Assembly (NCBI GenBank): GCA_001771535.1 | Contig: MEUB01000036.1 | Span: forward strand, 842 to 64,841 | Direction of reading: 5' to 3' | DNA: 64,000 nucleotides | Source: a candidate division WOR-1 bacterium RIFOXYB2_FULL_37_13 | GTDB taxonomy: Bacteria > Margulisbacteria > WOR-1 > XYC2-FULL-46-14 > XYC2-FULL-37-10 | Shown here: piece by piece, positions 32,873 through 57,230 of the stretch | Position numbering within the stretch: position 1 is the first letter of the stretch | Layout of the letters: the number at the start of each line of letters is the position of its first letter | Notes under the pieces: model-generated | What the model saw: only the letters and a program-made list of their open reading frames with translations | Database searches by the model: none | What the model was told of the DNA's origin: nothing | Translations under genes and position numbers: made by a program

Positions 32873-32878
32873 GCCTTA

Positions 32879-33806: not shown

Positions 33807-33815
33807 GTTTATTAT

Positions 33816-34715
33816 ATGGATACATTCCACCTGCCTGTAATGGCAAAAGAGATAGTTAATTTTCTCTCCCCTCTTAACGGAAAAACAATCGTCGATTGTA
33901 CGGTGGGTGGAGGGGGACACATCTCAAAACTAATATCCAATATCCAATTTCCAATTTCCAATGTCCAATGTCCAATGTCCAATTTCCACATCATAGCTAT
34001 CGACCAAGACCAGGAAGCTCTTGAGTTTGCTAAAAAACGATTGGCTAAATATGACAACATTGAATATATCCATGACAATTTTGGCAACTTGGCAAATATA
34101 ATAAAAGAGTCTGTTGATGCTTTTCTCTTTGATCTTGGCATTTCATCATACCAGATAGACCAGGCTTCCCGCGGTTTTAGCATACGATACGATGCGCCTC
34201 TTGATATGCGAATGGACAAAAGTAAACAGACATCCGCTCGCGAAATAATCCACAATTCAAGCGAGGATGAATTAGCGCAAATTTTCAAAGAGTATGGTGA
34301 AGAGCGGTTTTCAAGAAGAGTTGCCCGCGCGATTGTCTTGGAAAGAGACAAAAAAGAGATAAACACAACATTTGAGCTGAAAGATATAATAGAGAAAGCA
34401 ATCCCCACATGGAAAAAGAGAGAGTCTGTTACCCGCATATTCCAAGCACTCCGAATTGCTGTTAATTCAGAGCTTGATGTTTTAAAAAAAGCTCTGGAAT
34501 CAACAATCCCTTTACTTAAACCGGAAGGGAAAATAATCGTAATGTCGTATCATTCATTGGAAGATCGAATTGTTAAATGGTTTTTCAGAGATAAAGCTAA
34601 AAATGGTATACTTAATATACTTACAAAAAAGCCTGTTCTTGCGACAGAAGAAGAGACTGCAATTAATCCAAGGGCAAAAAGCGCTAAGTTGCGGTGCGCT
34701 GAAAAGAACAACTAA
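33816..34715 (+). CDS. rsmH: 16S rRNA (cytosine1402-N4)-methyltransferase RsmH/MraW
   Basis: HLPVM, DCTVGGGGH, AIDQDQEA, DLGISSYQID, SYHSLEDRIVK motifs. Contains the heptamer-encoded insert [18 protein letters not shown]. Confidence 0.9.
   Translation: MDTFHLPVMAKEIVNFLSPLNGKTIVDCTVGGGGHISKLISNIQFPISNVQCPMSNFHIIAIDQDQEALEFAKKRLAKYDNIEYIHDNFGNLANIIKESVDAFLFDLGISSYQIDQASRGFSIRYDAPLDMRMDKSKQTSAREIIHNSSEDELAQIFKEYGEERFSRRVARAIVLERDKKEINTTFELKDIIEKAIPTWKKRESVTRIFQALRIAVNSELDVLKKALESTIPLLKPEGKIIVMSYHSLEDRIVKWFFRDKAKNGILNILTKKPVLATEEETAINPRAKSAKLRCAEKNN
33935..33990 (+). repeat. Heptanucleotide tandem repeat NTCCAAT, about 8 units, in frame inside rsmH
   Basis: ATCCAAT ATCCAAT TTCCAAT TTCCAAT GTCCAAT GTCCAAT GTCCAAT TTCCACA. 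Confidence 0.9.
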
Positions 34716-41654: not shown

Positions 41655-42749
41655 TTATTTTGAAAGCGCTTCAATTATCTTATCTATGCGATGCCCGCAT
41701 GTATGGCGCGAAAGGACTTTCTTTTGAGCGGCAGATGATATAGTTTGCCTTTCTTTATCGTGTTCCATATAAAAAGCTATCTTTTCTTTTAAATCCTGAG
41801 GTCCTGAAAAAGTAACAATCTCTTTTCCAATCTCAAATAAATCACCAAGATCAGGCCTTAAGTCATCAACCAATTGAAAAGCCCCCAAGCCTCCAAGGAT
41901 AAAAGTCCTGTCATTGGGTGATTTAGCCATAATTTTGTTATTATTGCGATCCATATTGTGGCTAAAGCTGTCACGATGTATATTAAGATTTATTTTTGAT
42001 GCCAATTGATACTTTACGCTTTCTTCATAAGGAACAAACTCTTCTTTTATAAAGCTTTTCAACGTTTCATAATTGCTTAAAGCCCCCTGCCAAGAATCAG
42101 AAAGAACATGCGACCCCAGAAGCTTAACTTTATAGTTTTTTAAAAAACCAGAAAGCTCATCAATTACTTTAACCCTGTAAGAATTTTTAAACGGTGTGCC
42201 GACAAAACAAATATCGCTTTCATAGCTTTTTTCTTTTTGAAAGTTCTCAAATTTTGAAGGAAACGCCAATGGCAAAAAGAAAACATTTTTACACCCATTT
42301 TCCTGATATATAGGAACTGCAGCAGAATCAACCGTAAAAATAAACTCACAAATAGGAGCCATCTCCACGCTCAAATCAGTCCAATATGGGTCGTCAATCT
42401 GCCACATAACCATTTTTCTGCCCAAATCTTTTATTATTTTCAAAACAACCCTGTTTAAATGATGCCCATTCATAAAAAATATAAAATTAGACTTTGAAGA
42501 ATATATCTTTTGAGGGATAAGGGCAGAAGCATATTCTCTTGCAATTTTTATTAACTGATTTAAAGGAGTATCCTTAAATGAGGATTGTAAAAGCTGCCTA
42601 AAAACCAGAGTCTGTTTTGCAAAATCAAAAACTTCAACTTTAATCCCTTTCTCCAAAAAGGCAGCATAAATTACTTCATCCCAAAACTTTTCAACAGGGG
42701 TAATGCCATGCTTTATATAAAAAATTTCCATTTGTGGAGATTCTATCAT
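41655..42749 (-). CDS. CgeB-like glycosyltransferase (Glyco_trans_1_2-type C-terminal domain)
   Basis: C-terminal NDRTFILGGLGAFQLVDD...FSGPQDLKEKIAFYMEHDKERQTISSAAQKKVLSRHTCGHRIDKI resembles CgeB-family proteins. Start uncertain (42758 TTG, 42749 or a downstream ATG). Confidence 0.5.
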   Translation of the reverse strand: MIESPQMEIFYIKHGITPVEKFWDEVIYAAFLEKGIKVEVFDFAKQTLVFRQLLQSSFKDTPLNQLIKIAREYASALIPQKIYSSKSNFIFFMNGHHLNRVVLKIIKDLGRKMVMWQIDDPYWTDLSVEMAPICEFIFTVDSAAVPIYQENGCKNVFFLPLAFPSKFENFQKEKSYESDICFVGTPFKNSYRVKVIDELSGFLKNYKVKLLGSHVLSDSWQGALSNYETLKSFIKEEFVPYEESVKYQLASKINLNIHRDSFSHNMDRNNNKIMAKSPNDRTFILGGLGAFQLVDDLRPDLGDLFEIGKEIVTFSGPQDLKEKIAFYMEHDKERQTISSAAQKKVLSRHTCGHRIDKIIEALSK

Positions 42750-42758
42750 AAGAATCAA

Positions 42759-43154
42759 TTAAACAACAACACCATTTCCTGATGTATCAGGATTAATCAA
42801 TTGACTGCGCATTTGTTTTGCCTTTGATGAAATATTTTCCAACGCGATTAACATTTTATCTATTTCTTTTTTAACAGCGGGATCCGACGAATCCTGTTTT
42901 ATTGTTCGAAGGACACAAATCGCATCTTCTAAATTATTTCCATCCTTAGAACCAGTTAAAAGAGCAACAGCATTTCTTATTTTTTTAGCAATTTCCTTTA
43001 ATTTTTGCTGATTTTCCAGTTTTGCTTCCCCTGTTTCTTTTAAAATCTGAGCCAAAATTTCGTGAAGATCGCGCAATATTTTATTTACCGCCTCGTTGGG
43101 GTCGTTTTTTTCAAAGGCAACCGCAATGTTATTAAGTGACGAAGGATTTATCAT
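42759..43154 (-). CDS. Cluster ORFan, all-helical 131 aa (N-terminus MINPSS)
   Basis: GGGAG RBS 9 nt before ATG 43154. No signal peptide. No family recognised. Confidence 0.55.
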   Translation of the reverse strand: MINPSSLNNIAVAFEKNDPNEAVNKILRDLHEILAQILKETGEAKLENQQKLKEIAKKIRNAVALLTGSKDGNNLEDAICVLRTIKQDSSDPAVKKEIDKMLIALENISSKAKQMRSQLINPDTSGNGVVV

Positions 43155-43187
43155 TTTACTCATCTCCCTTTGTAATCTCAAACATTA

Positions 43188-44807
43188 TTAAACCGCTTCT
43201 CTTATGTCCTGTGGTCCTCCCGGAATCTGAGAATCAAGATGCGATTCGACTTTCAAGCGTTTCATTAGTTTTAAAATTAAAGACAATCTCTTTTCCAAGT
43301 TTGGATTTTGTGCCCCTTTCACCCTATATTCCAAAGACAAAAACTCATCTTTTGCCGCGTCAAATACTTTAATATTGGCAGAGTCGCGCAAACTATTGAA
43401 TTCTGTTTCATCTATTTCCCAACCCAAACGTTTAAGGTTGCTTAAAATACCTTTAATTTTCTGTTCAACCAGCTTAAATGCCGGCCCGGCCAATTCGTAA
43501 AGAGTTCCTCTTTCTTCCAGCGCGGACGAAAGCATGTCAACCAATCTGAGCCTTGCGGCGGCTATCCCCTCTTTTTCTATATCTTTAAATTCATCGCTTG
43601 AAACACCAAGCTTAATTAATCCGTTCTTTAATTTTGTAACTTTAAAATAGGTCGAAAGAACAGTTGCCATATCTCCGGAAATAGCGCGATGCATGTAAAT
43701 GGCCCGTAATCTGTTTATAAAAAGATCTTTTTCGTCTTCTTTTGAAAACTCATAGGGATTCTTTTTGTTTTTTGACTGTGATCCTAAATCCATATCCCCG
43801 GTTCCTAATGGGATATTGGGCGCAAACATACCGATATCAAATTTCTTTACCTGCCAGTCCTGAGAAAATTCGTTTAAATTAACTCCTACCTTTGTAGCAA
43901 GCTTAAGAAGTTCTTTTAATTCATTTGTAATTTTCTTGTCTGTTTCGGCATCGGCAGCCAAATGTTTGCCAATTAACTTTTCTGCCATCTTCTCTTTGGT
44001 GAAATCTTTAAGGTCAGAAAGCATCTCTTTCTTAATTTCGTCCGCGACCCCTTGCAAAGATTCATTGTCATGCAAGCCGGAAAGCAAGGCAGAATCCAAT
44101 ACAGTGTTTAAAGTTTTGTCTCTGATTATAAGGCCAACACTCTTTTCTTTTGTCAATATCTTTTTAAAAAAAGCGTCCTTTATCTGTTCTCTGACATCCT
44201 GGCGCATGGAATTTTTTACAGTTGTTCTTATGGAAATAAGGTCTTTATTGGTAAATCCTTTTTCGCTGAGCAATTTCTCCAAAGTTTCAAGCTTCTTCTT
44301 AATATCCTGTGAATCATTTACGGCGTATTGGGAATAAAGGGCGGCATATTCTTTGACTGCTTCCTGTGTCTTTGCATCAACTGTAATTTTTAATGCCTGG
44401 TCCTGTCCTTTTTGTCCCTTGCCTCCCTGCTGTTTCTTTTGCTCCCCTGCCTTGCCGACAACATTATTTAATTCTACAAAATCATCAAACTTTTCATCTC
44501 CACGGAACAACTGGCTAAGTTCGTCCTCAAGCTCTCCTTTTGTCTTATCAGATAAACGGTCAGGCTTAAGAGAAACACCGGCTGTTGCCAGTTTTGTAGC
44601 CAATCCGGCCAAGATGTCGAGTCCGGCCTTGCTTGCCGTAACCCCGCTTTGAAGGAGTTTGTCGACATCTGATTTCGCCTCAACTTTTCGAGTTGGAAAA
44701 TCAGATGCCGTTTTTTTATCTATCTGTTTAAGTTCAACAGACAAACTATTGCTCAACGCGACAGCCATTTGCTGCGAAGACGCGTTATCTACAATGTTAA
44801 CTCCCAT
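43188..44807 (-). CDS. Cluster ORFan, 539 aa, K/E-rich helical with a Q/G/K low-complexity tract
   Basis: Long ORF with an RBS. No signal peptide or TM helix. GEQKKQQGGKGQKGQDQ tract. Confidence 0.6.
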   Translation of the reverse strand: MGVNIVDNASSQQMAVALSNSLSVELKQIDKKTASDFPTRKVEAKSDVDKLLQSGVTASKAGLDILAGLATKLATAGVSLKPDRLSDKTKGELEDELSQLFRGDEKFDDFVELNNVVGKAGEQKKQQGGKGQKGQDQALKITVDAKTQEAVKEYAALYSQYAVNDSQDIKKKLETLEKLLSEKGFTNKDLISIRTTVKNSMRQDVREQIKDAFFKKILTKEKSVGLIIRDKTLNTVLDSALLSGLHDNESLQGVADEIKKEMLSDLKDFTKEKMAEKLIGKHLAADAETDKKITNELKELLKLATKVGVNLNEFSQDWQVKKFDIGMFAPNIPLGTGDMDLGSQSKNKKNPYEFSKEDEKDLFINRLRAIYMHRAISGDMATVLSTYFKVTKLKNGLIKLGVSSDEFKDIEKEGIAAARLRLVDMLSSALEERGTLYELAGPAFKLVEQKIKGILSNLKRLGWEIDETEFNSLRDSANIKVFDAAKDEFLSLEYRVKGAQNPNLEKRLSLILKLMKRLKVESHLDSQIPGGPQDIREAV

Positions 44808-44819: not shown

Positions 44820-44996
44820 CTATCCTTTTTTCTTGCCTTCCTCTCCCCAAATGATTTTATTGACCGAGTTTGATTTTAGTTTTTCTGTAAGCCTTGCCAT
44901 CACCACGTTTGACCACTGATTCTGCTGGGCTTTGGAAAGTTTTTCATCAGTAGGTTTCACAGAATCCGAAAGTTTAGGATTATAAGTGCTCGCCAT
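44820..44996 (-). CDS. Cluster ORFan, 58 aa (MASTYNPKLSD...)
   Basis: AAGGAGG RBS 8 nt before ATG 44996. Overlaps the 3-prime end of the GT2-TPR gene by 17 nt. Confidence 0.5.
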   Translation of the reverse strand: MASTYNPKLSDSVKPTDEKLSKAQQNQWSNVVMARLTEKLKSNSVNKIIWGEEGKKKG

Positions 44997-46086
44997 TTGA
45001 ATCAACCTCCTTTTTTAATTGTTCAATCCTAGCCTTTAATTTTGGATCAGGATAAAAATCGTAAGCAATTGTAAATTCCCTCAATGCGTCTTGTTTTTTT
45101 TGACCCATTAAATATGCGCTACCAAGATAAAAATGCGGAAAATAAGTATAATCTTTGATATTAAAACCGTTTAAAGCATTTTTGGGCGGGGATAATTTAC
45201 TTGCGTGCTCAAAAACATGGATAGCATCTTTGGTCTGTTTTGTGAACAGGTAAATAACACCCATCATGTTATAAGCCTCGGCATTAAACGGCTCCAACGC
45301 GATAACTTCTTTTAAGGTTTCAAAAGCTTGCGCGTATTTGCTCTGTTCCATAAGCATCTTTGACATCCTCATCCTTGAGACAACCGAGATAGGATCTTTG
45401 GGCGCAATTGAGACAACCGTAGAATATTCAGAAAACGCGGTTGTCTTGTCTCCAACGTCAAAATAGTTATTTGCCAAAAGGAAGTGGCAATGAAAATCAT
45501 TTTGGTCTTTTTGCAAAGCCTCTTTTAGTATCCGGAAATTTCTCTCCTTCTTTTCCTTTGCCTTCTCCTCACCCAAATCCTTCCCCCAATGAAAAACTTT
45601 AATATCTTGCAAAAATTCCCCTTTGAGCAATTCTCCCGAGGCAGCATAAACCTGCTCATTAAAAGAACGCCCAAAATGAATTCCTTTATTATTTTTAAAA
45701 ACTTTCAGCCTTGAATAAAATCTGGAGCCTTCCTCTGTTCCGAATTGAGCCTGATATATAGGCAAATAATATGCCTCTTTGTCACTCTTCTCTAAAATCT
45801 GGCGAAGCGTATCAAGCGTTTTCTCATTTATAAACTCATCAGCGTCTACCCATATAATCCAATCACCCAAAGCGTGTTTGAGCGATTCATTTCTAGCCGC
45901 CGAAAAATCATCGATCCAAGAAAAAGTATGAATTTTCGCCCCCAGTTTTTTGGCGATTTCAATTGTATTGTCCGTTGATCCGGTATCAACCAAAACAATT
46001 TCATCAACTTTTTTTGCAAGAAGAGGCAAAGTTTTTTCAAGAACTTTTTCTTCGTTTTTTACTATCATACAAACTGAGAGTTTCAT
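44980..46086 (-). CDS. Family-2 glycosyltransferase fused to C-terminal TPR repeats
   Basis: LSVCMIVKNEEKVLEKTL, VDTGSTDNT, WVDADE (DxD) GT2 motifs. The C-terminal about 170 aa has TPR-like repeats. Confidence 0.8.
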   Translation of the reverse strand: MKLSVCMIVKNEEKVLEKTLPLLAKKVDEIVLVDTGSTDNTIEIAKKLGAKIHTFSWIDDFSAARNESLKHALGDWIIWVDADEFINEKTLDTLRQILEKSDKEAYYLPIYQAQFGTEEGSRFYSRLKVFKNNKGIHFGRSFNEQVYAASGELLKGEFLQDIKVFHWGKDLGEEKAKEKKERNFRILKEALQKDQNDFHCHFLLANNYFDVGDKTTAFSEYSTVVSIAPKDPISVVSRMRMSKMLMEQSKYAQAFETLKEVIALEPFNAEAYNMMGVIYLFTKQTKDAIHVFEHASKLSPPKNALNGFNIKDYTYFPHFYLGSAYLMGQKKQDALREFTIAYDFYPDPKLKARIEQLKKEVDSNGEHL

Positions 46087-46476
46087 TTAATTTTCTCCTA
46101 CAGAAACCGATATTCTACTCTTAGTCAAAAATTTTTCTATTTTCTCCTTTTCTTCATTCTGAGTCTTAAAAACTTTCCCAAAATATTTCTTGTACATATC
46201 AAGCAGCCTTTCAGCCCGCTTTATATATATTTCAAGTTTTTCAAGTTTTATCAAAACTTCTTTTTTATCTGTCCCCAATACTTGCATCTCATATTCAATA
46301 TTTGACCTTTCAGAATAAAAAGATAAAAGATGATTCTTTAACGCGTCATATTCCATCTCTTTTATTTTTATCGGATTATAATCATCTTTCACTCCCAGCT
46401 TGTCGGCTTGGATCAAAAGCTGATTTTCAAGCTCTTGAAAAACTCTCATTTGAGCTTTTATTTTTTTACTGCTCAT
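46087..46476 (-). CDS. Cluster ORFan, 129-aa coiled-coil protein
   Basis: Heptad-rich K/E sequence. The stop abuts the GT2-TPR start, and the start overlaps the upstream gene by 4 nt. Confidence 0.55.
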   Translation of the reverse strand: MSSKKIKAQMRVFQELENQLLIQADKLGVKDDYNPIKIKEMEYDALKNHLLSFYSERSNIEYEMQVLGTDKKEVLIKLEKLEIYIKRAERLLDMYKKYFGKVFKTQNEEKEKIEKFLTKSRISVSVGEN

Positions 46477-47024
46477 ACAATTTTTGCCCCCGTAACAATC
46501 CCAAACAATGCCTTTTCACTTGCGACCTGTGCCAGGCCATTTTTAACAGCAATATTTTTTTCTTCTCTTGCTTTTGACATTAATTTTTCTATTTCAGCAG
46601 GGCTTATGCCAAGCAATCCCATTTGAAAAGTAATTACCCCAACCCCCATTTTAGAAAGTTCGGCCACAAAAAAATTATGGCTGAAAGTATCCATTGCAAG
46701 CTTAACCATCTTATTTTTAAGAACCTGCAAAGTTTTATCCCTGAATCTCAAATTATTATTTTTTGATAACGATTCAACTTCATCTTCTGCCAAAGCCGAA
46801 GATGCGGCGGCAAGATAGACGGTATCCTGCATTCCGACTTTATAAGTTTTGCTTCCATCTTTTCCCTCAACTGTTTCCCACACTAAAGAGGACATTTGTT
46901 GTGTCCCTTCGTTCTGTTTTTCTTTGGGAACTTCTTCTTTTAATTTTTGGTATGCGGCTTTTTGCGCCGAGAACATTTTGTCCTGGCTTAAATTAGCCGC
47001 AATTGTTGGCGCTTCATATGCCAT
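46473..47024 (-). CDS. Cluster ORFan, 183 aa
   Basis: GGGGAAGG RBS. First gene after promoter P4. No family recognised. Confidence 0.55.
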   Translation of the reverse strand: MAYEAPTIAANLSQDKMFSAQKAAYQKLKEEVPKEKQNEGTQQMSSLVWETVEGKDGSKTYKVGMQDTVYLAAASSALAEDEVESLSKNNNLRFRDKTLQVLKNKMVKLAMDTFSHNFFVAELSKMGVGVITFQMGLLGISPAEIEKLMSKAREEKNIAVKNGLAQVASEKALFGIVTGAKIV

Positions 47025-47108: not shown

Positions 47109-49388
47109 TTACTTGTTTTTCTTTTTCTGGCCGCCCTTACGTTCTTCCATCCGTTTTCGCTGCACTTTAGAACTTGACTCCTTATTTCCCATTTTTTGTA
47201 ATTCTTCTCTTCGTTTTTGGGCTTTGGCCGCGGATTGAGCAATTCCGGCCCTGATCTCGGCATCCTTTTTTTGTTCTTGACCTTTATCAATGGCTTCCTG
47301 ATATCTCAACTCCATTTTTCTCTCATGGTAGGCTGCCATATCTTTTTTATAATCCAGGCGGTCTCTCCTATTGCGGACATTGTTAGCAATTGTTCTGCCG
47401 ACATCCTTGTCACCAAATCTTAAAAGCCCCATAACATCGTAAACCGCCCAGTTATTCATATTAACAGCTTCATTGCCATTTTCATCATAAGCAATTCCTG
47501 ACCTATTTCCTGAAAGATTTATTCCCATAAGCTGTGAAGGAAAATATTTTGGATGAGGCCCTCCGGAATCACTGGCTATTTTATTGTTGTTTGGGCCATC
47601 TTTAATCGTTGACGATGTTTCACTATCAGGATTCCAGATACTGCCTTTAGCGCTGTAAAAATCCCACCCCGCACGTTTTCCCAGTTCGTTGTCATCATTT
47701 TTCGTTCTTATGTAAGGCTGAGAATCATAAACACTACCATAACTATCGGTATTAGGGTTTGGATTGTCTATTCCAAAATATTCATACATCAGATTTTGAA
47801 CGTCACCTTGATATTCATCTATTCCGTAATAATCGTCATCATCTACTCCTTGATAATTTTCATCTTTCGCAAGCGACCCAAGATAATTTTTATATGTTTG
47901 CGTATTATTATATAGCCAGTCGTTAAATCTTATAAACGCCAGCTGATCTTTACCCGAAAAGAGCCATCCCGGAAGTCCTCCGCTTTTATCGGTCGGCTTA
48001 AAAAGAAATTCCGAGGGATTAAATCCATACGCGGGAAAAACTGATCTGAAAGAATGCTGCATAGAAATAAAAAGGTTAAGAAAAGCAAGATTATGCGAAT
48101 CTGCCATAAGCCCTCGCATAGGATCAGAACGCCATTTATCAAAAGAGCCGCGCAACGCGGCATCATCTGGAGTTGCTGTTACTGTTACCGTCCCATCGCT
48201 ATTGGTAACATATGTCAAACGGCCTATATCGCTATTGCTCCCAAAGATCTCTGTCATGGCGCTATAAATTCTACGGCGTGATTCGAGCATTCCAAGCATC
48301 AGCTTAAATGCCCCTTCCCCATGATCTCCAGCTTGCAGGTCATAATCAAATAGGCCGCTATTAAAAGAATCGCGTCCTGTGGTAAATGTTTCGCCATCTC
48401 CGCTTTTCCAGTTATTATTGTTATTCCAGTCACTGTCTCCCTTCCATCTTATGTTTTCCCCATCGGTAACCCCATCGCTCCCTGCCTCAATTTTTGCCCC
48501 TTTTTTAAATCCCGACATTATAATTTCATAGTAACTTTCGTCTCCATAATCTTCAAGATTTTTTAAAATACCGTCAGATAATGCTTTAATCGGAGTTCCT
48601 TTTTTTTCTTTATCTTCTTTATTGTAAAAATTGAGCCCTTCATCCCAAATATCAGAATAGGTTTCTGGATTAAAAATTCCCAGTGATAATGGGTTTAAAA
48701 AATGAAATAAATTATCGTAATTTATAGGGCCATTAAGAGATGAGCCCTGATACGTCTCAATAAGATCATGAGCTTTTTTTTCAATTCCATAATGTTTCTT
48801 GTCATTTTGATTAACATCGAAGTGGTTGAATTGGGATACTGACGGATGAAAATCTAGGTTTTCCGCCCTACTCCCTTCAAAAAATCCCCAAGGCAACCCA
48901 TCCCCCTGAGTTCTTGGAACTCTATGCCATGAGCCAAAGTTATCTCTTGTATATCCACGCCCTGCATCGCTATCCCAGACATCGTTAAAACGGGTATGCA
49001 CAGGATTTCCATCTTCATCCAACAGATAATACGGATTTTTATCGTCAGTCCCGTTCCATTGCGGAATATCCTCAGGATCTCCTTCCCATAAAGTCGGAAG
49101 TGGATCGTTGCCCTCCCAAAATGAAGAGCCTTCCGCATATCCGAATTCCGTCAAAGCATCGTAAAACTCTTCTGATGATTCTCCCGCGTAACCTACCTGT
49201 TCAAATCTTGGCAGAAATTTCATCATCTCCATAAGAAAATTAACGCGGCTGCCCAGCCATTGGAAAGAAGAGGGAGTTTCAACCCCATCATGGAGATAAA
49301 ATCTGGAATAATCAGGATTGTCTACTTTCAACGGCTTACGAGGTTTTGGCAGTGTCTCACTATTTCCAAAGGAGTTCATAAAAAACAT
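47109..49388 (-). CDS. Cluster ORFan, 759 aa, acidic W/Y/D/N/G-rich body with an about 90-aa K/R-rich C-terminal tail
   Basis: AGGAGG RBS. No signal peptide or TM helix. The tail ends ...KAQKRREELQKMGNKESSSKVQRKRMEERKGGQKKKNK. Confidence 0.65.
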   Translation of the reverse strand: MFFMNSFGNSETLPKPRKPLKVDNPDYSRFYLHDGVETPSSFQWLGSRVNFLMEMMKFLPRFEQVGYAGESSEEFYDALTEFGYAEGSSFWEGNDPLPTLWEGDPEDIPQWNGTDDKNPYYLLDEDGNPVHTRFNDVWDSDAGRGYTRDNFGSWHRVPRTQGDGLPWGFFEGSRAENLDFHPSVSQFNHFDVNQNDKKHYGIEKKAHDLIETYQGSSLNGPINYDNLFHFLNPLSLGIFNPETYSDIWDEGLNFYNKEDKEKKGTPIKALSDGILKNLEDYGDESYYEIIMSGFKKGAKIEAGSDGVTDGENIRWKGDSDWNNNNNWKSGDGETFTTGRDSFNSGLFDYDLQAGDHGEGAFKLMLGMLESRRRIYSAMTEIFGSNSDIGRLTYVTNSDGTVTVTATPDDAALRGSFDKWRSDPMRGLMADSHNLAFLNLFISMQHSFRSVFPAYGFNPSEFLFKPTDKSGGLPGWLFSGKDQLAFIRFNDWLYNNTQTYKNYLGSLAKDENYQGVDDDDYYGIDEYQGDVQNLMYEYFGIDNPNPNTDSYGSVYDSQPYIRTKNDDNELGKRAGWDFYSAKGSIWNPDSETSSTIKDGPNNNKIASDSGGPHPKYFPSQLMGINLSGNRSGIAYDENGNEAVNMNNWAVYDVMGLLRFGDKDVGRTIANNVRNRRDRLDYKKDMAAYHERKMELRYQEAIDKGQEQKKDAEIRAGIAQSAAKAQKRREELQKMGNKESSSKVQRKRMEERKGGQKKKNK

Positions 49389-49411: not shown

Positions 49412-49735
49412 CTACATTGAACTTAAGCGATCTTCAAGTTTGCGCACATTATTCCAAATATCCAAAATCGCGGATTGCGCCTGATCTATTTTTGCCATGC
49501 GATCTTCAAGCAGCAATGATGTTGAAGAAGAATTTACATTTGCTCCGTTTACATAATTATTTCCTATTTTCAAAGTTTTAGTAGGATCCGGATTCACTGA
49601 TAATTCCGCGTAATTTTTTATAAGATCAGCCATTTCAGTATAAAAACTTTTAACAGTTTTTATAACGTCCACATCAGGTGAATGATTGATCTCCCCTCCC
49701 AACGGTGAAAAAAATTTAACATTAAAAAATGCCAT
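49412..49735 (-). CDS. Cluster ORFan, 107 aa, helix-loop-helix-like
   Basis: AAGGAGG RBS. Predicted N- and C-terminal helices flank an N/S-rich loop (VNPDPTKT...NVNSSSTS). Confidence 0.55.
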   Translation of the reverse strand: MAFFNVKFFSPLGGEINHSPDVDVIKTVKSFYTEMADLIKNYAELSVNPDPTKTLKIGNNYVNGANVNSSSTSLLLEDRMAKIDQAQSAILDIWNNVRKLEDRLSSM

Positions 49736-49836: not shown

Positions 49837-50145
49837 TTAGCTTCTAACAATTTGACGGGTCCTTTCCGCCATTTGATTCTTCTTGGATACAGCGCTTGCA
49901 GCTGTCTGCTCAATTGTCGATAGTTTACTAAGATAACTATCTAAAACAAGAGCCCCTCCACCACTTGATACGTCTATGTCTGTCCCTCCAACATTCACAT
50001 TTATTGTTGTGTCTTCAATCGTATCATTCTCCCCATCAACTGCAATAGCACTTTTGATATCTTCCATCAGTTGATCTATGCTATTATCACAAGAACTTGC
50101 CACATCATAAGCATTCTGTTCAATCGTATTAGGAGTATCTGCCAT
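49837..50145 (-). CDS. Cluster ORFan, 102 aa, acidic
   Basis: AGGAGGTG RBS. Helical N- and C-termini flank a G/D/T-rich middle (NVNVGGTDIDVSSGGGAL). Confidence 0.55.
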   Translation of the reverse strand: MADTPNTIEQNAYDVASSCDNSIDQLMEDIKSAIAVDGENDTIEDTTINVNVGGTDIDVSSGGGALVLDSYLSKLSTIEQTAASAVSKKNQMAERTRQIVRS

Positions 50146-50186: not shown

Positions 50187-50444
50187 CTACACCAATGTAT
50201 TAACATTAAAGCCCCGCATACCAAGTTTATCTGCTATCGCGTGAAATCTGTTAACTGAGATATGTCCTTCCTGTACAAGGTTTTGCATAATTTCAAACTT
50301 ACCAGCCTTGCTGGTAGAAGAATCTTTGGCCAGATAGGAGGAAAGATCGGAAGTCACGCTTGAATTGGAATAAGTAGACCCGCCGGATTCTTCCATATCC
50401 ATCTGCGGCATAGTTACTGTTGAATTTGAAGCTGGGTTTATCAT
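50187..50444 (-). CDS. Possible FlgM-like anti-sigma-28 factor (85 aa)
   Basis: S/T-rich, probably disordered N-half. C-terminal KFEIMQNLVQEGHISVNRFHAIADKL parallels the FlgM C-terminal pattern (kVaalKaaIasGtYkvDaekIAdkL; compare B. subtilis [26 protein letters not shown]). Sits directly behind sigma-28-like promoter P3. Confidence 0.35.
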   Translation of the reverse strand: MINPASNSTVTMPQMDMEESGGSTYSNSSVTSDLSSYLAKDSSTSKAGKFEIMQNLVQEGHISVNRFHAIADKLGMRGFNVNTLV

Positions 50445-50491: not shown

Positions 50492-50785
50492 TTATTTGTA
50501 GGATTTATCATTTAAAATATTTTTTATTTTTGAAAGGCGCTTAAAAATATTTTTAAGACACTCTTCTTCTTCGTCTATTTTCGGCTCTTTTTCCCAATCA
50601 GCCTTTAATCTAGCCTTGCTCATGTCTGACGCGTAAATTTCGTTGCCGCGAACAACTTTATCGGCGCGCAAAATAAATCCGCGCAGACTTTGCAGAAAAT
50701 TTTGTCCGTTTATTTCCTGCGGCTGGCTTTGTTTTGTTTTTATATCATTTAAATTAAGTGCTGCGTTTATTTTATTTACTTCCAT
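50492..50785 (-). CDS. Cluster ORFan, 97 aa
   Basis: Start ATG overlaps the stop of the 1523-aa gene (TAATG), suggesting translational coupling. Confidence 0.55.
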   Translation of the reverse strand: MEVNKINAALNLNDIKTKQSQPQEINGQNFLQSLRGFILRADKVVRGNEIYASDMSKARLKADWEKEPKIDEEEECLKNIFKRLSKIKNILNDKSYK

Positions 50786-53700
50786 TATACTAGCCCTCCT
50801 CCGATTGTAGGCCTGTTTTTCTGCTCTAAAGATGAAAGAGCCGCCATTTCTCCTGTTTGCGCTAAATAGAGCTCATAAGGATTCTGCCTTCTTCTGTTGT
50901 TGTCCTGGCCTTTAGATGGAGATGGCGCTGAGTTTACAGATATCCCAGCATCTTGTGAGCCGCTTAAATCAACAGGGATTACTATTTTGTCTTTGTCATC
51001 ATCCCTCGCAACTTTAAGATGAATATCCCTTTGTTTGACAGAGTCCTTGATATAATCAGCCGAGCTTTTGGAGGTATCCCAAATATTGTTTAATATATCA
51101 TCATTTTGTTGAGAGGTAATCTCGCGAGCCTCCATTTCAAGATCAATAGCGCCGGATGTGAGCGCGCTTGCGAGAGAATTGCTTTCTGACTTATTAACTC
51201 CCGCGGCCCATCCCTTTTGGTTTGAGCCTGAAGTTTCTGATCTGATTTCAGATAAATAGGCCTCTCTTCTTTCTATCCTCTCTTCTCTTGCCTCTTTAAC
51301 ACTCTTGCGCTTTCCACCGCTTGCGAACCCTGAATCATAAATAATACCAGCCAGTAAAACCGCTATATTCTCCGTTAACCCTCCTATAAACTGGTATAGT
51401 CCTAAGTCCTCGTACTGCTTAATATGTTCATTATACGCAAACATTTTTTTATCATTTTCGGACTTAATGTTTTCTATATCAGCATTAATTTTTCTATACT
51501 CATTAGCAAGTTTTTTATATGAAGACTCATCCCCTCTCGAATAAGCCTCATCCGCGAATTTCCTTTTTTCTTCCGCCAAAATTTTCTTGTCTCGCGCGAC
51601 TTTTTCAGCTGTTTTCATGTTTTCTATATTCTCCCGATAGTCCTCTCTAAGCGCCGCTGTTTTATATACAAAAACCAGATTAACCAAAGAGATTGACGCG
51701 GCAATCAAGCTCTGTACCATTGCCCGCTTTGCAAAATTCATCTGGTTATGGCGCTCAACAATTGTCAAGACATTCTGATAAAGGGTACCTATATTTGCCA
51801 TAGCAGAAGCCTGTTCCGATGAAAAAGCGTCTGTCGCGTTTCCAACTCGCCCTCCCGCACCAGATAAAGTAGCGTGAATTGAGGCTCTCATTTCTGCCTT
51901 TGCTTCCTGCAATTTTGCCAACACGTCACGAATATTAAAAATCCTCTCCATTTTATGACGAAATAATTCTACTACTCCGCTATTTACACCCCATCTGCCC
52001 GCCCCCAAATCTTCTATAATATCCATTGACATATCTTTGTATAATTCCATTTCCATCAATTCAAGATCATCAAGTGTCGAATCTCCAGAATGTTCTTCTT
52101 TTAATCTTTCGGCAATTTTTTCAGGGTCGTATTTTTCTATTTCACGCCCTCGCCTGCTGCGGATTGAATTGATGATAAAATCATAACCGGCATTAGCAAT
52201 CCCCATCATAGGAGAAATAAAGGCAAAAGCTATTTGCGAGTAATTTATCCCAACACCGGCGCAAGCGGTAAGAATCGCAATATCAATTCCCAGTTTAAAT
52301 GAAGCATCAATTATATTTTTTCTTGAATCTAAGGCTCTCTTTTGAGTTTCAATTCTTTCTCCCAAGAACTGCACTAAATTATCAAAAACTTTCAGCTTCC
52401 CTTCAAATTCAGCTCTGTTAACATCGTGAGAAAGCTTCCCTTCTCTTCTTCCGGAAACGCCTGTCATTTCGAGATGGACAAGATTTCTCATTTCTGTTCT
52501 TGCTTCATTTAGAGTCGCCAAAATATTTTGGATGTTGGCAAGGCGGGTTAAAATATCTCTAAGCTTGGCAACATATCCTCCATTTAAACCCCAATATCCG
52601 TCACCAATATCTTTATTTATCCCGTTGGTAAATAACTCTTCATAAACTCGCGCTTCAAGGCTTGCCATACGGGCTTGCGTTGAATTCGGGTTATTTTTTC
52701 TAAGGGTTCTTAGATAGGCGGGAACGCCATCATCCCCATAACTTGAGCCAAAAGAGCCCATCGTCAATTCATATAACAGACTGGAAGTAAATCCGCCTAA
52801 AGCGCCACCGACCCCCCAGCCTATATAAAAAAGTCTTGTTGAAAGACTTGCCGTAGCTTCTGTAGCAGCCCTTGTCCCAGCTTCCAAACCTTCTTCAGCA
52901 AGTTTGCCGCCTTTATCTAAAAGTTTCCCTAATAACCCTCCAAAGGCAGCGCAGACCCCTTGAATAACAAGCGAAAGAGCAAAACTGTTTACGGCGCCTG
53001 CCATTTTTTTATCTTTTGCAATCGCCATATTTTCGGCGTTTTTATATTCATTTAACATAAAAGTCAAAGTATCAAATTTAAACTGAGCTAAGCGCGCATC
53101 AGATTCAACCGCGGCATCAACATAGGCAGAAGATTCCCTACCTCCAACTCCTGTCATTTCCATATGAACCAGATTTCGCATGGAATTTTTTTCTTTACTT
53201 AAGGCAACAATAACTCTTCTTATATTTTGAATTTTTACCAATTGGGTTTGCAGTCTTGCTATCTCCTCAAAGTCTATTTTCTTGAATTCTTCGGATGCCC
53301 TATCTGTAAACCAGTTGCCGGGGTTTGCATTAGACTGTGTCCACCACGATCTAACCCTGCCTTCATCGCTATCCTCATCCTGAATCATACTCTCATCATT
53401 TTGAACAATAATGCCATCTTCCATATTGGAAGTACTATTCATAATATCAAGCATGTCGTTTCCTGTATCTGTATCAGCTTGATCTCCCGTATCGTATGAA
53501 GGAATATCCGGCACATATCCCTCTGTCATAGAATTTGCGACAATTGCGCCTGCCAGTTTTACTCCCGCAGCCAATACGCCAAGTATCAAGCCCGCAACAG
53601 GAACAAAAAATCCGACTACTATCGCAGCTACAGAAAGAAAATTCGAAATAACATTAAAAACCCGCTGTACTTTGGCTTTTTCTATTTCTCCTTCCAGATA

Positions 53701-55356
53701 TTTGACATTGTTTTCAAGCTGCATCTTTTGCTGAGTAAGCCTGATATTTGTCTCAAAAAGTTGAGTTTTATGCTGGTCTTCCATTTCTTGAAGTCTTTGC
53801 GCGTTACTGTTGCTCTCTCTGCCTCCGACCCCTGTCATCTCTTTGTGAACCATGTTGCGCGTTTCCTGTTTCGCGCCTCTTAACATGTTTAACGCTTTTC
53901 TTATATTTTGCAAACCATAAAATTGTTTGCGTATTTTAACAAGTTCATCTTCATCAAGTTCCCAATAACCATTATCCCCTTTATAGACAATATTCGGGAT
54001 ATCAGCAAAGATAGCCATTTCTCCATTTTGCAACGCCTCATCAATTTTTGCGGGGTCACTTTCTATCTGCAAAGAGCCATCTTCCTCTTTATCAGTCGTT
54101 TTATTTAACAAGTCAAGAACTGTACTCATCGCTCTTAAATATTTTTCAACAGCTCTTTTTTGCATTTCAAGACTCATTTCCGTGTTGCTGCCGCCGGTTA
54201 TGGCATCTGTTGCCTGATTCCAGAGGCCATCCGTTGTTGCCTGCGCCGCGGCGACCTCCGCATCAACAATGGCCTGGTTATAATCCATCATCTCTTCAAG
54301 AAGTTTGCCAAACGCCACGCTGACTCTTGCCAGCCTGTTTTGTACTTCTTTGGCAATAATTGTTTTGGTATCCATTCCTTTCATGGGAGTAAGGCCAAGC
54401 AGCTCTTCCACCACAAGATTATACATATCATCTTTCGCTTCCGTCAGCATTTGGAACATAATAAGCAGCCCGCAAAGAAAGCTGACTTTTTCATACCAAT
54501 CAGCCAAACGATCCGTATCAACAACCATCATTCCATCATCGTTGTAATAATAAAAATCATCAGGATCATAATTATTTACCGCGTTATCCAGCTCGTTGCT
54601 GACAGCAACCACAGTCTCCGCTGTTGAACTATTTTCATCTAAGGCCGCAAGATACGAATATTCATAAACATAAGAGGTATCCCCATTTTCATATTGTTGC
54701 TGATGCAGCCATTGGTCAAAATTATATTGGGCGGAATGCTGAGTATTGGCATCCCATGATTCTTCAAATGTTTCGATCTCTTTGCCGTCCTGATAAACCA
54801 GTATTGCATCTTCTTCTCTAGTTGAGGCAGAGGTATCTTTTCTATAGTGGGAATTTACAACCATATAACCGTCATATTTTTTTGATTCTTCTTCCAGATA
54901 AGCCTGCGCCGCTTCTTCACTGTCAAACGTAACTGTAGTTCCATCAGGGTTTGTAATTGTTACCGTAGTCTCTCCTGTAGTATCCACATAAGTAGTCATA
55001 TCATATTCAGCTGAAACATCGGTACTGGCAGATTGGCTCTCAGTTGTAGAAGTTGACGAAGTTGTTGATGTCGTTGATGCAGTTGAAGCAGTCTCCGCAG
55101 ACTGAGAAGATGAAATATAATTAGGGTTATCTTCCGCAAGATTTAAAACTGGCTCACCAAAAACAACCTGACTTTGCGCACTGTTCAAGCTTGAACGAAT
55201 TGAAGAAACATCAACAGATATAGAAGAATCAACTTCAGGCACTTCTATCTTTTCATCAAGAAGGTATGGAGGAGTTACACCCGCGCCACCAATTTGGTCA
55301 GATTCAAGCTGGTCAGAAAACTTTTGTACTTCAACAATTTGATAGAGGTTTCCCAT
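50785..55356 (-). CDS. Giant modular membrane protein (1523 aa) with four to five repeated helical-plus-hydrophobic-hairpin modules
   Basis: Repeated motif NxVHxEMTGVGGRES at 53812-53856, 53131-53175, 52441-52485 and a degenerate SIHATLSGAGGRVG at 51841-51882. Each is preceded by GYW-x-LN...NIR/Q...L..EA and followed by a coiled coil and a 40-50-aa bilobed hydrophobic segment. S/T tract at 55021-55113. Confidence 0.75.
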   Translation of the reverse strand: MGNLYQIVEVQKFSDQLESDQIGGAGVTPPYLLDEKIEVPEVDSSISVDVSSIRSSLNSAQSQVVFGEPVLNLAEDNPNYISSSQSAETASTASTTSTTSSTSTTESQSASTDVSAEYDMTTYVDTTGETTVTITNPDGTTVTFDSEEAAQAYLEEESKKYDGYMVVNSHYRKDTSASTREEDAILVYQDGKEIETFEESWDANTQHSAQYNFDQWLHQQQYENGDTSYVYEYSYLAALDENSSTAETVVAVSNELDNAVNNYDPDDFYYYNDDGMMVVDTDRLADWYEKVSFLCGLLIMFQMLTEAKDDMYNLVVEELLGLTPMKGMDTKTIIAKEVQNRLARVSVAFGKLLEEMMDYNQAIVDAEVAAAQATTDGLWNQATDAITGGSNTEMSLEMQKRAVEKYLRAMSTVLDLLNKTTDKEEDGSLQIESDPAKIDEALQNGEMAIFADIPNIVYKGDNGYWELDEDELVKIRKQFYGLQNIRKALNMLRGAKQETRNMVHKEMTGVGGRESNSNAQRLQEMEDQHKTQLFETNIRLTQQKMQLENNVKYLEGEIEKAKVQRVFNVISNFLSVAAIVVGFFVPVAGLILGVLAAGVKLAGAIVANSMTEGYVPDIPSYDTGDQADTDTGNDMLDIMNSTSNMEDGIIVQNDESMIQDEDSDEGRVRSWWTQSNANPGNWFTDRASEEFKKIDFEEIARLQTQLVKIQNIRRVIVALSKEKNSMRNLVHMEMTGVGGRESSAYVDAAVESDARLAQFKFDTLTFMLNEYKNAENMAIAKDKKMAGAVNSFALSLVIQGVCAAFGGLLGKLLDKGGKLAEEGLEAGTRAATEATASLSTRLFYIGWGVGGALGGFTSSLLYELTMGSFGSSYGDDGVPAYLRTLRKNNPNSTQARMASLEARVYEELFTNGINKDIGDGYWGLNGGYVAKLRDILTRLANIQNILATLNEARTEMRNLVHLEMTGVSGRREGKLSHDVNRAEFEGKLKVFDNLVQFLGERIETQKRALDSRKNIIDASFKLGIDIAILTACAGVGINYSQIAFAFISPMMGIANAGYDFIINSIRSRRGREIEKYDPEKIAERLKEEHSGDSTLDDLELMEMELYKDMSMDIIEDLGAGRWGVNSGVVELFRHKMERIFNIRDVLAKLQEAKAEMRASIHATLSGAGGRVGNATDAFSSEQASAMANIGTLYQNVLTIVERHNQMNFAKRAMVQSLIAASISLVNLVFVYKTAALREDYRENIENMKTAEKVARDKKILAEEKRKFADEAYSRGDESSYKKLANEYRKINADIENIKSENDKKMFAYNEHIKQYEDLGLYQFIGGLTENIAVLLAGIIYDSGFASGGKRKSVKEAREERIERREAYLSEIRSETSGSNQKGWAAGVNKSESNSLASALTSGAIDLEMEAREITSQQNDDILNNIWDTSKSSADYIKDSVKQRDIHLKVARDDDKDKIVIPVDLSGSQDAGISVNSAPSPSKGQDNNRRRQNPYELYLAQTGEMAALSSLEQKNRPTIGGGLV
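51700..54430 (-). repeat. Intragenic protein-level repeat modules (201-230 aa period) of the 1523-aa gene
   Basis: Motif spacing is 681, 690 and about 603 nt. An earlier, more degenerate module lies near 54370-54425 (DMYNLVVEELLGLTPMKGMD). Confidence 0.7.
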
Positions 55357-55439: not shown

Positions 55440-55658
55440 TTATTTTTGCAGGTTTTTCAACTGTTCCTGCAAGGTTTTTTTCGCATTTTCAAGCTCTTTG
55501 TTGACGGAGGCAATTTTATTGTCAAGTTTTTTGATATCTTCTTCGGCTTTTTTCTTTATGAGTGTATAGCGTATAATTTGAAAAGTATTATATATTATAA
55601 AGGCGACTCCCACCCCGACAAAAAATGTCACCCAATTTATAGTTGTTAAAAATTCCAT
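55440..55658 (-). CDS. Cluster small bitopic protein (72 aa): N-terminal TM helix plus coiled coil
   Basis: INWVTFFVGVGVAFIIYNTF TM helix, then a K/E heptad region. AGGAG RBS. Confidence 0.55.
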   Translation of the reverse strand: MEFLTTINWVTFFVGVGVAFIIYNTFQIIRYTLIKKKAEEDIKKLDNKIASVNKELENAKKTLQEQLKNLQK

Positions 55659-55680: not shown

Positions 55681-56037
55681 TCACACATTACTGTCAACTA
55701 CGGGATTATCCGCCGTAGGATTGCCGGCCATAGGGATAGAAAGGTCGCCGGATTCTTTTTCTTCTCTTTCAACTTTAACACGTGATTCATGCGCGCCAAA
55801 TAAAAATTCCGCCACAAGATCAAGAAGGCTTTTAGTCGCGGTCGCATGCATTTTAAATTCCAAGGTATCTATTTCTGCTCCTTCAGGAGTATACCTGTTA
55901 GTCACAGAAGTTTGTAACGGCTCATCAACAAGTTTCCGTTTAGCAGCCTTAATTTCACCGGCAAGGTCAGGCTCATATTTAATTGCTTTACTATTTCCAC
56001 TCTTCGGATTCATTGATATCGGCGATGTATAAGCCAT
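55681..56037 (-). CDS. Cluster ORFan, 118 aa (MAYTSPISMNPKSG...)
   Basis: AAGGAG RBS. No family recognised. Confidence 0.55.
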   Translation of the reverse strand: MAYTSPISMNPKSGNSKAIKYEPDLAGEIKAAKRKLVDEPLQTSVTNRYTPEGAEIDTLEFKMHATATKSLLDLVAEFLFGAHESRVKVEREEKESGDLSIPMAGNPTADNPVVDSNV

Positions 56038-56060: not shown

Positions 56061-57230
56061 CTAACTTCCTCCGCTAACAGGAACCGGAATATCCGCAGCA
56101 TATTTATTAAGTGTATCAATCACCCACTCTGTTCCTTGTTTTTCATAATTTTCAAATATCAGATCGGTAACATATTTCCCTTCAGGGGTTACTGTCTTTG
56201 CGTCAAAGTTAATCGCATCAATCCGTTCTGCAAGACTTTTCTCTTTTGCCCATTTTCTAAACCGTTCAAGATTCTTTTGATACCCTAACAATTGATCAAT
56301 ATCTCTTTTTAAGCTCTTGTAATCTTTCATGTAATCTTTATTCTGGTAATAACTCTGTAAAATAGGAGCAAAACGGTCTACGGCCCATTTATCGGCAAGC
56401 ATAAGTTTGTTTATTGTAGGATAACCAAATTTTTTGCCCGCGTCTTCAATAAACGAATTCGTAAGACCCATGGTAAACAATTTCCAGCCTTCAGAATTTA
56501 ACTTGTCAAAGCTTTGAGCAGGTTCGTCACTGCCAACAACAGAAGCAACAGCCGCATAGTGAAAAGCATTACTAACTGCGGTATTTCCCAAATCAGCATT
56601 GCTCCAACCCATTTCTTTTACTTTTGATGTCATAGTCCTTGCAGAAATAATTACAAGATATTTGGTTTCCGCAAGCTGCTTAAATGACCGCTCTCCTGTT
56701 AAATCCATTGAACTCAAAGTATCTTTCAAGATTATAAGAAGTTCATTTCTGTCCTTGATATTCCCTTTCCCAAGAGTAATATCATCCCAGAATTTTTTTG
56801 TAGTTTGAACCCCCAGCAATTTATCAAATTCTTTCTGATTCATGCCATCCGTTTTAAATGCCAAATCAAGAGAGGCAGAAACATTTGCTTCCTGAAATTT
56901 TTTATCAGGTCTTATCTGTCCAAGGAATGAATAAATTTGATGATCGAGAGTTGTAGGTATCGGGATATCTCCACTTGCTGCCGCGTCAACTCCACTTTGG
57001 GGAGTAACTATTCCTGGCGCTATATTTCCGCTGGCAGAAGAAGAGGTTCCGGTCGGTTCTATTTCGCCCGCAGAAGAAGTCGCTGAAGTTGACGGCAAAT
57101 AAGAAGAAAGAACCGAAGTATCAGTTCCCAATTCAACTCCGGGCATATTTCTGCCGCACCCGTCCACTACAAGATTTACATTTCTTGTCGGTTGTTTTGG
57201 CGCACTGGTTACAGGAATAAAAAGAGCCAA
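56061..57230 (-). CDS. Cluster ORFan, 389 aa with an S/T/G/P-rich N-terminal region
   Basis: TTG start with AGGAGG 7 nt upstream. S/T tract at about 56975-57119. No signal peptide. Confidence 0.6.
   Translation of the reverse strand: MALFIPVTSAPKQPTRNVNLVVDGCGRNMPGVELGTDTSVLSSYLPSTSATSSAGEIEPTGTSSSASGNIAPGIVTPQSGVDAAASGDIPIPTTLDHQIYSFLGQIRPDKKFQEANVSASLDLAFKTDGMNQKEFDKLLGVQTTKKFWDDITLGKGNIKDRNELLIILKDTLSSMDLTGERSFKQLAETKYLVIISARTMTSKVKEMGWSNADLGNTAVSNAFHYAAVASVVGSDEPAQSFDKLNSEGWKLFTMGLTNSFIEDAGKKFGYPTINKLMLADKWAVDRFAPILQSYYQNKDYMKDYKSLKRDIDQLLGYQKNLERFRKWAKEKSLAERIDAINFDAKTVTPEGKYVTDLIFENYEKQGTEWVIDTLNKYAADIPVPVSGGS

Follow-up and report, generated by a model that had tools for sequence, protein, structure and literature searches.

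Type III secretion system (T3SS) translocators (IpaB/SipB/YopB/SseC) combine a coiled coil with a single transmembrane (TM) helical hairpin and lack a signal peptide. Inc proteins such as IncA carry a bilobed hydrophobic domain of about 40 to 60 aa next to coiled coils; they are small T3SS substrates that usually contain one N-proximal bilobed domain, and they are confined to the Chlamydiae. Methyl-accepting chemotaxis proteins (MCPs) have a very long, membrane-anchored antiparallel coiled-coil hairpin; its most conserved part is a membrane-distal, Gly-containing U-turn, and this tip docks the cytoplasmic partners CheA and CheW. Here, we analyzed a 64,000-nucleotide stretch of contig MEUB01000036.1 (termed the window) from a groundwater bacterium of candidate division WOR-1 (Saganbacteria), which encodes a 1523-amino-acid (aa) protein with the working name BIG on the minus strand (open reading frame [ORF] 50785..55356). 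Saganbacteria and Margulisbacteria are uncultured sister lineages of Cyanobacteria, and to our knowledge almost nothing has been described of their cell biology. We found that BIG contains five old tandem modules and belongs to a family that, like its conserved set of neighboring genes, is new by elimination, as no test for a known family was positive on sequence or context and the features shared with known families were generic architectural ones.

The original prediction, made from the letters of the window, had compared BIG with T3SS translocators and Inc proteins. BIG displays the translocator layout, but in four or five tandem modules instead of one hairpin, and BIG and its relatives are 4 to 15 times larger than translocators. 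No translocator hidden Markov model (HMM) of Pfam or NCBIfam matched BIG, and neither T3SS apparatus genes nor a class II TPR chaperone was found in the cassette of the window or within 10 kb in the loci L001 to L029. The hosts of BIG are Saganbacteria and Margulisbacteria, unlike those of the translocators. With Inc proteins, BIG shares bilobed hydrophobic segments of 40 to 50 aa beside coiled coils (aa 565-610, 790-862, and 1021-1062); however, it comes from a different lineage than the Chlamydiae and shows no sequence relation. The resemblance is thus architectural only, which corrects a tempting T3SS/Inc reading of the sequence.

The ORF starts with ATG, and its product is identical to OGC21764.1 ("candidate division WOR-1 bacterium RIFOXYB2_FULL_37_13"). 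Among 5.8 billion clustered proteins, the only close relative was a 1730-aa WOR-1 protein of 54% identity. A regular-expression search located the motif at aa 502 in module M1 (MVHKEMTGVGGR; 53818-53853), at aa 729 in M2 (LVHMEMTGVGGR; 53137-53172), and at aa 959 in M3 (LVHLEMTGVSGR; 52447-52482), with a degenerate copy, SIHATLSGAGGR, at aa 1159 in M4, giving spacings of 227, 230, and 200 aa. BIG was cut at this period of 200 to 230 aa, and the modules were compared by BLASTP. The E values were 4e-15 (M1/M2), 2e-13 (M1/M3), 1e-14 (M2/M3), and 1e-13 (M3/M4), and those of M4 against the other modules ranged from 1e-5 to 1e-13. The repeats are far above chance, and the four clear modules and one degenerate module lie where they had been predicted. 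The degenerate copy M0 (aa ~270 to 440) matched the other modules only weakly (E values of 0.002 to 0.04); support for M0 comes from relatives, in which the profile matched weakly at the corresponding position, and from the structure prediction, which was identical. Between modules, the DNA was only 42 to 56% identical over the 46 best-conserved codons and almost saturated at third positions. Tandem Repeats Finder detected no DNA repeat of module length but merely two short arrays (periods of 9 and 16). These matches and this divergence show that the repeats are real, old, and maintained at the protein level, as had been proposed. The features of BIG that belong to the repeats are as follows.

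50785..55356, minus strand: BIG, five tandem modules flanked by a conserved N-terminal motif and a conserved C-terminal tail
53989..54555, minus strand: module M0 (aa 268-456), degenerate, predicted β-hairpin and helical hairpin, no hydrophobic segment
53284..53988, minus strand: module M1 (aa 457-691), from self-BLAST, profile, AlphaFold2 (AF2), and orthology
53812..53856, minus strand: M1 tip motif NMVHKEMTGVGGRES, predicted end of helix A and turn
52618..53283, minus strand: module M2 (aa 692-913), from self-BLAST, profile, AF2, and orthology
53131..53175, minus strand: M2 tip motif NLVHMEMTGVGGRES
52021..52617, minus strand: module M3 (aa 914-1112), from self-BLAST, profile, AF2 (alone and in the multimodule model), and orthology
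52441..52485, minus strand: M3 tip motif NLVHLEMTGVSGRRE
51337..52020, minus strand: module M4 (aa 1113-1340), from self-BLAST, profile, AF2, and orthology
51841..51882, minus strand: degenerate M4 tip motif SIHATLSGAGGRVG

The structure was predicted with AF2 for M3 alone (mean local confidence, pLDDT, of 65), a check that the original prediction had suggested, and for aa 260 to 1340 with a 52-sequence alignment (pLDDT, 77.8; global score, pTM, 0.69). Both models agreed on the layout of the module. It begins with a short β-hairpin, formed by the GYW-x-hN element, which is followed by a helix A of ~40 aa ending in RNLVHxEMTG, a Gly-rich loop of 7 to 9 residues (VGGRESx), a helix B of 65 to 100 aa that outlasts helix A and continues straight into the hydrophobic segment, and a returning third helix (helix C). 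M0 shares the β-hairpin and the helical hairpin and lacks the hydrophobic part. According to the models, the motif is the cap and turn of an antiparallel coiled-coil hairpin of ~6 nm. Given this greater length of helix B and its continuation into the hydrophobic part, the motif would lie at the membrane-distal tip and the hydrophobic turn at the opposite end. The scores obtained over 1081 aa suggest that the modules adopt a defined mutual arrangement. Fold matches in the PDB comprised SMC and Rad50 coiled coils, Mitofusin, and HP0958, each covering no more than 240 of the 1081 residues at 5 to 13% identity; these are generic antiparallel coiled coils, and none fits the multimodule arrangement. 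The nearest analogy of principle is the signaling hairpin of MCPs, as BIG is likewise predicted to form long antiparallel hairpins with a conserved tip. However, BIG gave no MCPsignal or HAMP match, would carry five hairpins per chain instead of one per subunit, and has no che genes in its cassette.

The motif had been called invariant. Conservation was quantified across 339 modules of the family. The best-conserved positions were N95 in helix B (90%), G55 (79%), G9 (76%), and T54, V49, and R46 (61% each); H50 was conserved in 44% and R59 in 23% of the modules. Conserved hydrophobic residues followed a spacing of 3 to 4 (heptad) up to V49 and M53. Invariance holds for three copies in BIG but not elsewhere: the Arg of copy 2 is a Tyr in the 54%-identical orthologue, and in distant relatives the motif has decayed to, for example, FEAVSGKSGQ or WQSMGVV. 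This pattern is the one expected of a coiled-coil core with a Thr-Gly helix C-cap and a tight turn. These data bear on the proposal that proteolytic processing or covalent modification takes place at GVGGR. On this reading, BIG would be a polyprotein or a repeatedly modified substrate. Among short elements, the motif is indeed conserved best; each module has one copy, which is predicted to sit in an exposed turn. However, the Arg and His vary, distant relatives carry other residues in its place, the conserved positions fit a core and a cap, and the cassette contains no conserved protease or modifying enzyme. The motif does not resemble a site of catalysis, cleavage, or modification, and we consider processing or modification highly improbable. 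An exposed and conserved hairpin tip might serve as a contact surface, in line with the interaction role that had also been proposed. A reading of HxEMTG as the H-box of a histidine kinase was ruled out by the low conservation of the His and the lack of a HisKA match. A flagellin-like reading (EMTGVGGR compared to ERLSSGLR) is supported by no HMM.

Hydropathy was examined for the segments that follow the modules, which had all been described as bilobed hairpins. Two lobes were found after M1, M2, and M3, but M4 is followed by a single lobe. The M1 segment (Kyte-Doolittle value of 2.63; 19-residue Hessa-scale sum of -0.26) is the only one that looks clearly membrane-like, and by these scales M1 alone is predicted with confidence to form a membrane hairpin. 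The others are marginal, with Hessa-scale sums of 2.3 for M2 and 2.75 for M4 and no window below 3.5 for M3. Hydrophobicity at all four segments was kept across the 52-sequence alignment, and Kyte-Doolittle values above 1.6 were found among 92 relatives in 79% after M1, in 61 to 66% after M2 and M3, and in 40% after M4. No hydrophobic segment occurs upstream of aa 565 in BIG, and by inspection its N terminus (MGNLYQIVEVQKFSD...) contains neither a signal peptide nor a lipobox. A motif of the general form (D/E)x(I/V)AG(A/G)(A/G)xxPxY(I/L) is located close to the N terminus, after a segment with many S, T, N, I, and Q residues. At aa ~22, 32 of 113 full-length relatives carried the strict pattern, for which the background is 0.009 per 90 aa; looser forms occur commonly in the family. 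The C-terminal tail of the family reads Y..Y..A..EE and then small residues; 47 of 119 relatives end in Ala, and 87 of the 119 end in A, G, S, C, or V. Outside the five modules, length varies enormously within the family. Ser/Thr-rich tracts were observed at aa ~80 to 115 of BIG and at aa ~40 to 70 of g389, the product of the first cassette gene, and could be substrates of O-glycosylation.

53527..53664, minus strand: M1 hydrophobic hairpin, bilobed (aa 565-610), with a Pro in its turn among the relatives examined, the only clearly transmembrane-like segment
52771..52989, minus strand: M2 hydrophobic lobes (aa 790-812 and 844-862), Gly-rich, with a family-conserved GxxxG...G pattern
52171..52296, minus strand: M3 hydrophobic lobes (aa 1021-1062)
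51658..51720, minus strand: M4 single hydrophobic lobe (aa 1213-1233), family-conserved RHNQM just before it
55255..55305, minus strand: N-terminal motif ESDQIGGAGVTPPYLLD (aa 18-34)
50785..50889, minus strand: conserved C-terminal tail (NPYELYLAQ...GGGLV)

The taxonomic spread of the family was determined by a profile search, as had been proposed. A module profile (A1) was built from the eight clear modules of BIG and its 54%-identical orthologue. HMMER searches with this profile against 1.84 billion representatives, clustered at 50% identity, retrieved 140 proteins at an E value of ≤1e-3, of which 120 reached ≤1e-10. Nearly all of them are 1200 to 5000 aa long and displayed 4 to 5 consecutive module matches in a local hmmsearch. 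In 75 relatives, the best match of a BIG module was found at the same ordinal position 52 times for M1, 49 times for M2, 57 times for M3, and 67 times for M4. The fivefold duplication is thus older than the family's radiation, and every module has kept an identity of its own. These orthologous positions support long-term purifying selection on the modules; the original prediction had argued for selection on the motif. The named carriers were Candidatus Saganbacteria, Candidatus Margulisbacteria/Margulisiibacteriota, Ca. Termititenax, one metagenome-assembled genome (MAG) labeled Omnitrophota, and several "uncultured bacterium" MAGs. Giant ORFs of 10.8 to 14.5 kb that run off their contigs were observed in loci L012, L015, L016, and L018 of Ca. 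Termititenax/Margulisiibacteriota, with their extra length outside the five modules. Tandem pairs of BIG paralogues occur in L021 (8540-18762, with a g97 homologue between them) and in the Omnitrophota-labeled L006 (840-12838) and L025 (with a g72-like gene between them), which hints at hetero-oligomers. The N-terminal extension of P0025 (2923 aa) gave a borderline match to a transglutaminase core at aa 139 to 196 (23.4 bits, with a cutoff of 23).

Known families were searched for with BIG, six relatives (P0020, P0023, P0025, P0038, P0039, and P0060), and the cassette proteins. Scans of Pfam, NCBIfam, PHROGs, and PADLOC, which did not include all combinations of protein and library, returned nothing specific; for BIG itself, Pfam listed four unrelated sub-threshold families at an E value of ≤1 and NCBIfam none. 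The PDB contained no sequence match for the profiles of the module, the g102 family, or the g539 family or for the sequences of g539, g759, and g389. The claim that the modules belong to no known repeat family was therefore borne out in the family libraries, by sequence and fold in the PDB, in BFVD, and among phages and plasmids. No description of the BIG family was found in the literature; a preprint on giant genes of Omnitrophota describes other proteins, with SecA-DEAD domains (10.1101/2023.11.21.568195). Structural comparison with ESCRT-III/PspA/Vipp1 aligned ~105 of 1081 BIG residues at 8% identity. No Snf7 or PspA_IM30 HMM matched BIG, and those proteins are peripheral and, unlike BIG, lack hydrophobic hairpins. 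Phage tape-measure proteins resemble BIG in being long and helical with occasional internal hydrophobic segments, and some of them were among its weak top BFVD matches in Foldseek. However, no BFVD match reached an E value of ≤0.001, and tape-measure proteins appeared only at 0.03 to 2 with a TM-score of ~0.1. They share no sequence, profile, or significant fold match with BIG, and no PHROG matched. No relatives were found in 2.9 million viral contigs, 50,697 phage records, or 72,556 plasmids, and the flanks of the BIG locus are housekeeping genes in synteny between species. An origin as a tape-measure or other mobile-element protein is thus effectively refuted by profiles, collections, and context.

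BIG lies within a tightly spaced block of 15 genes on the same strand, in the following order.

56061..57230, minus strand: g389, first cassette gene, no family match
55681..56037, minus strand: g118, small, kept in close relatives only
55440..55658, minus strand: g72, 72 aa, predicted N-terminal TM helix and coiled coil, conserved beside BIG
50785..55356, minus strand: BIG
50492..50785, minus strand: g97, start codon overlapping the BIG stop (TAATG), conserved in distant loci
50187..50444, minus strand: g85, small, close relatives only
49837..50145, minus strand: g102, small, strongly conserved C-terminal helix (AGAxVxDDxxxKxSTxxQxAxQ...)
49412..49735, minus strand: g107, small, conserved C-terminal helix, faint profile similarity to the g102 C terminus
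47109..49388, minus strand: g759, rich in N, D, G, W, and Y, Lys-rich tail, no signal peptide, no family match
46473..47024, minus strand: g183, conserved cassette protein
46087..46476, minus strand: g129, conserved basic coiled-coil protein
44980..46086, minus strand: GT2 glycosyltransferase with TPR repeats, inside the cassette both in the window and in L001/L002, a close relative
43188..44807, minus strand: g539, conserved helical K/E-rich protein
42759..43181, minus strand: g140, small helical protein at the cassette end
41655..42758, minus strand: CgeB-like glycosyltransferase (DUF3880 and Glyco_trans_1_2), last gene on the minus strand

The entire block is syntenic in the orthologous species. 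Iterative searches of the loci revealed that the set BIG-g97-g102-g107-(g759)-g183-g129-g539 recurs in L009, L010, L026, L027, and L029, in which BIG is only 21 to 26% identical. In this second lineage, the flanks encode IspF, PdxJ-SLH, RpiB, a sugar-1-phosphate nucleotidyltransferase, and an acyltransferase. The partners of BIG gave no match in Pfam, NCBIfam, PHROGs, PADLOC, or the PDB, and by inspection no cassette protein has a signal peptide. No ATPase, secretin, or other secretion-system gene was found within 10 kb in any of the ~15 loci examined. A promoter and terminator scan yielded counts no higher than chance. The small cassette proteins showed no relation to the module in hhalign (probability of ≤1%), and the similarity between g102 and g107 was faint (9%). 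In the g102 family, the C-terminal helix is very conserved (AGAMVIDDLMQKISTKVQVAAQLLSTANNIAKTASRILSQG in distant members) behind a hypervariable middle part; such a pattern is typical of subunits that polymerize or dock via their C termini. A needle-like reading of the g102 C terminus is supported by no HMM. A third glycosyltransferase (GT1/GT4) is encoded in or beside the cassette at 40425-41642 (plus strand). In L009, a gene for a "23S rRNA-intervening-sequence protein" (four-helix bundle, bAvd-like) is inserted in the cassette at 17370-17729, and ORFs are found at the corresponding place in L026 (14050-14559) and L010 (15202-15609).

Starting from the repeats, the predicted fold, the orthology and conservation of the modules, the cassette, and the lack of known homologues, we infer a topology, a docking role, a complex, and a function for BIG. 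Our preferred reading, held tentatively, is that BIG acts as a cytoplasmic scaffold anchored in the inner membrane, with hairpin tips that dock cassette partners. BIG would be a resident inner-membrane protein of a diderm Saganbacterium. Because it lacks a signal peptide, its N terminus should stay cytoplasmic, and since M0 and M1 precede any hydrophobic segment and the two-helix segments return, all five hairpins would be cytoplasmic. The anchors would be helical hairpins that enter the membrane and leave it on the side they came from, certainly after M1 and probably after M2 and M3 if the predictions hold. Each module would then form an antiparallel coiled-coil hairpin with the return helix as a stalk into the membrane. 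The R..VH.EMTG-V-G-G-R element would combine the end of the heptad core, a Thr-Gly helix cap, and a tight Gly turn at the membrane-distal tip; helix lengths suggest that this tip could stand as far as ~10 nm off the bilayer. Five nonequivalent modules would yield a single-chain, pseudo-oligomeric platform, whose conserved tips and termini may dock g72 in the membrane and g97, g102, g107, g183, g129, g539, and g759 in the cytoplasm. The resulting membrane-attached assembly would be specific to the Saganbacteria/Margulisbacteria lineage and possibly tied to the adjacent glycosyltransferases. The lack of a secretion, phage, or plasmid context at the BIG locus was counted in favor of this scaffold.

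Several observations weigh against such a scaffold. The topology is drawn from simple hydropathy scales, by which only the M1 hairpin passes a Hessa-type threshold. If the M4 lobe spans the membrane, the C-terminal part, which comprises up to thousands of amino acids in relatives, would be noncytoplasmic. In composition, g759 is closer to extracellular proteins, and the conserved tip may have a purely structural role. Furthermore, N termini rich in Ser, Thr, Asn, Ile, and Gln, conserved tails, and the lack of signal peptides also suit substrates of a non-Sec pathway. BIG could accordingly be exported by such a pathway, with its hairpins inserted into another membrane (the outer one or that of a host or partner cell) in a translocon-like or pore-forming manner, and the small helical cassette proteins serving as chaperones or as filament- or needle-like partners. 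Signal peptides are absent throughout the cassette, the conserved N termini and tails are signal-like, the M2 hydrophobic segment has a Gly-zipper-like pattern, and g102 and g107 have conserved C-terminal amphipathic helices. In addition, relatives include giant versions in Ca. Termititenax and in the Omnitrophota-labeled genome, and some carriers are host associated; these lineages include episymbionts. Nevertheless, we regard export as unlikely, though the foremost alternative, given that no locus examined has a gene for an export ATPase, secretin, T3SS, type I secretion system, or type VII secretion system within 10 kb, no class II TPR chaperone was seen in the ~15 loci, no translocator family HMM matched, and 1500 to 5000 aa is very large for T3SS substrates.

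The glycosyltransferases raise the question of whether BIG participates in the assembly or export of an envelope glycoconjugate or polysaccharide, with its hairpins as a conduit or spacer. In polysaccharide co-polymerases (PCPs), membrane-fusion proteins, and TolC, hairpin tips carry conserved contact motifs. The GT2-TPR gene lies inside the cassette and the CgeB-like and GT1 genes follow it, the sugar-1-phosphate nucleotidyltransferase and the acyltransferase flank BIG in the other lineage, and BIG and g389 contain Ser/Thr-rich tracts. However, membrane-fusion proteins and TolC are periplasmic and have a signal peptide or lipobox and lipoyl or β-barrel domains, none of which is present in BIG. 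The first hairpins of BIG, M0 and M1, precede any membrane segment, so that at least two hairpins should be cytoplasmic. No Wzx, Wzy, ABC, or OPX genes occur in the cassette, the glycosyltransferases are not kept in all loci, and no HMM of the HlyD, PCP, or OEP families matched. This role, which only the sugar enzymes nearby suggest, appears improbable. A bolder possibility, which we consider rather unlikely, combines BIG with g72, g97, g102, g107, g759, g183, g129, and g539 into an unrecognized envelope machine of Saganbacteria and Margulisbacteria. Here, the five nonequivalent units of stalk helix and membrane hairpin would form a pseudo-pentameric, channel- or motor-like core around g72, which would export or display the signal-peptide-less cassette proteins, for example, as a new secretion, attachment, or cell-contact apparatus of episymbionts such as Termititenax.

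The analysis defines a large and well-delimited family with an unusual single-chain, five-module architecture and an eight-gene cassette (g72, g97, g102, g107, g759, g183, g129, and g539) that is kept across deep divergence, down to 22% identity, and has no member recognizable in current family or structure libraries. Should the cassette prove to form a membrane-attached assembly or a device for export or contact, it would represent a new kind of bacterial envelope machinery; if BIG is merely a lineage-specific scaffold, it still constitutes a clean new domain family. Pending functional demonstration, the cassette is one of many uncharacterized cassettes of candidate phyla.

The remainder of the window is an ordinary diderm chromosome, with LptF/G (from which the diderm nature of the host is deduced), several aminoacyl-tRNA synthetases, genes of the Trp pathway, Pta, PmbA, UDG, and one insertion sequence (IS) integrase. 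A 1067-aa ORF without a Pfam match (13240-16443, minus strand) has a signal-peptide-like N-terminal segment and a β-rich composition, adjoins a gene for an NHL-repeat β-propeller protein (16476-17468), and may encode an outer-membrane or surface protein. Two ORFs on the plus strand (22680-23900, 406 aa; 23897-25951, 684 aa) overlap at the stop and gave no Pfam match at an E value of ≤1e-5. The IS-type integrase (rve, HTH_21; 30002-30862, minus strand) is surrounded by diverged direct repeats of 287 nucleotides (32061/33526; 75% identical) and 152 nucleotides (29228/33229; 94% identical), and a 286-aa ORF without a Pfam match is located nearby (32879-33739). This region (29000-34000) looks like a small patch of mobile or duplicated DNA.

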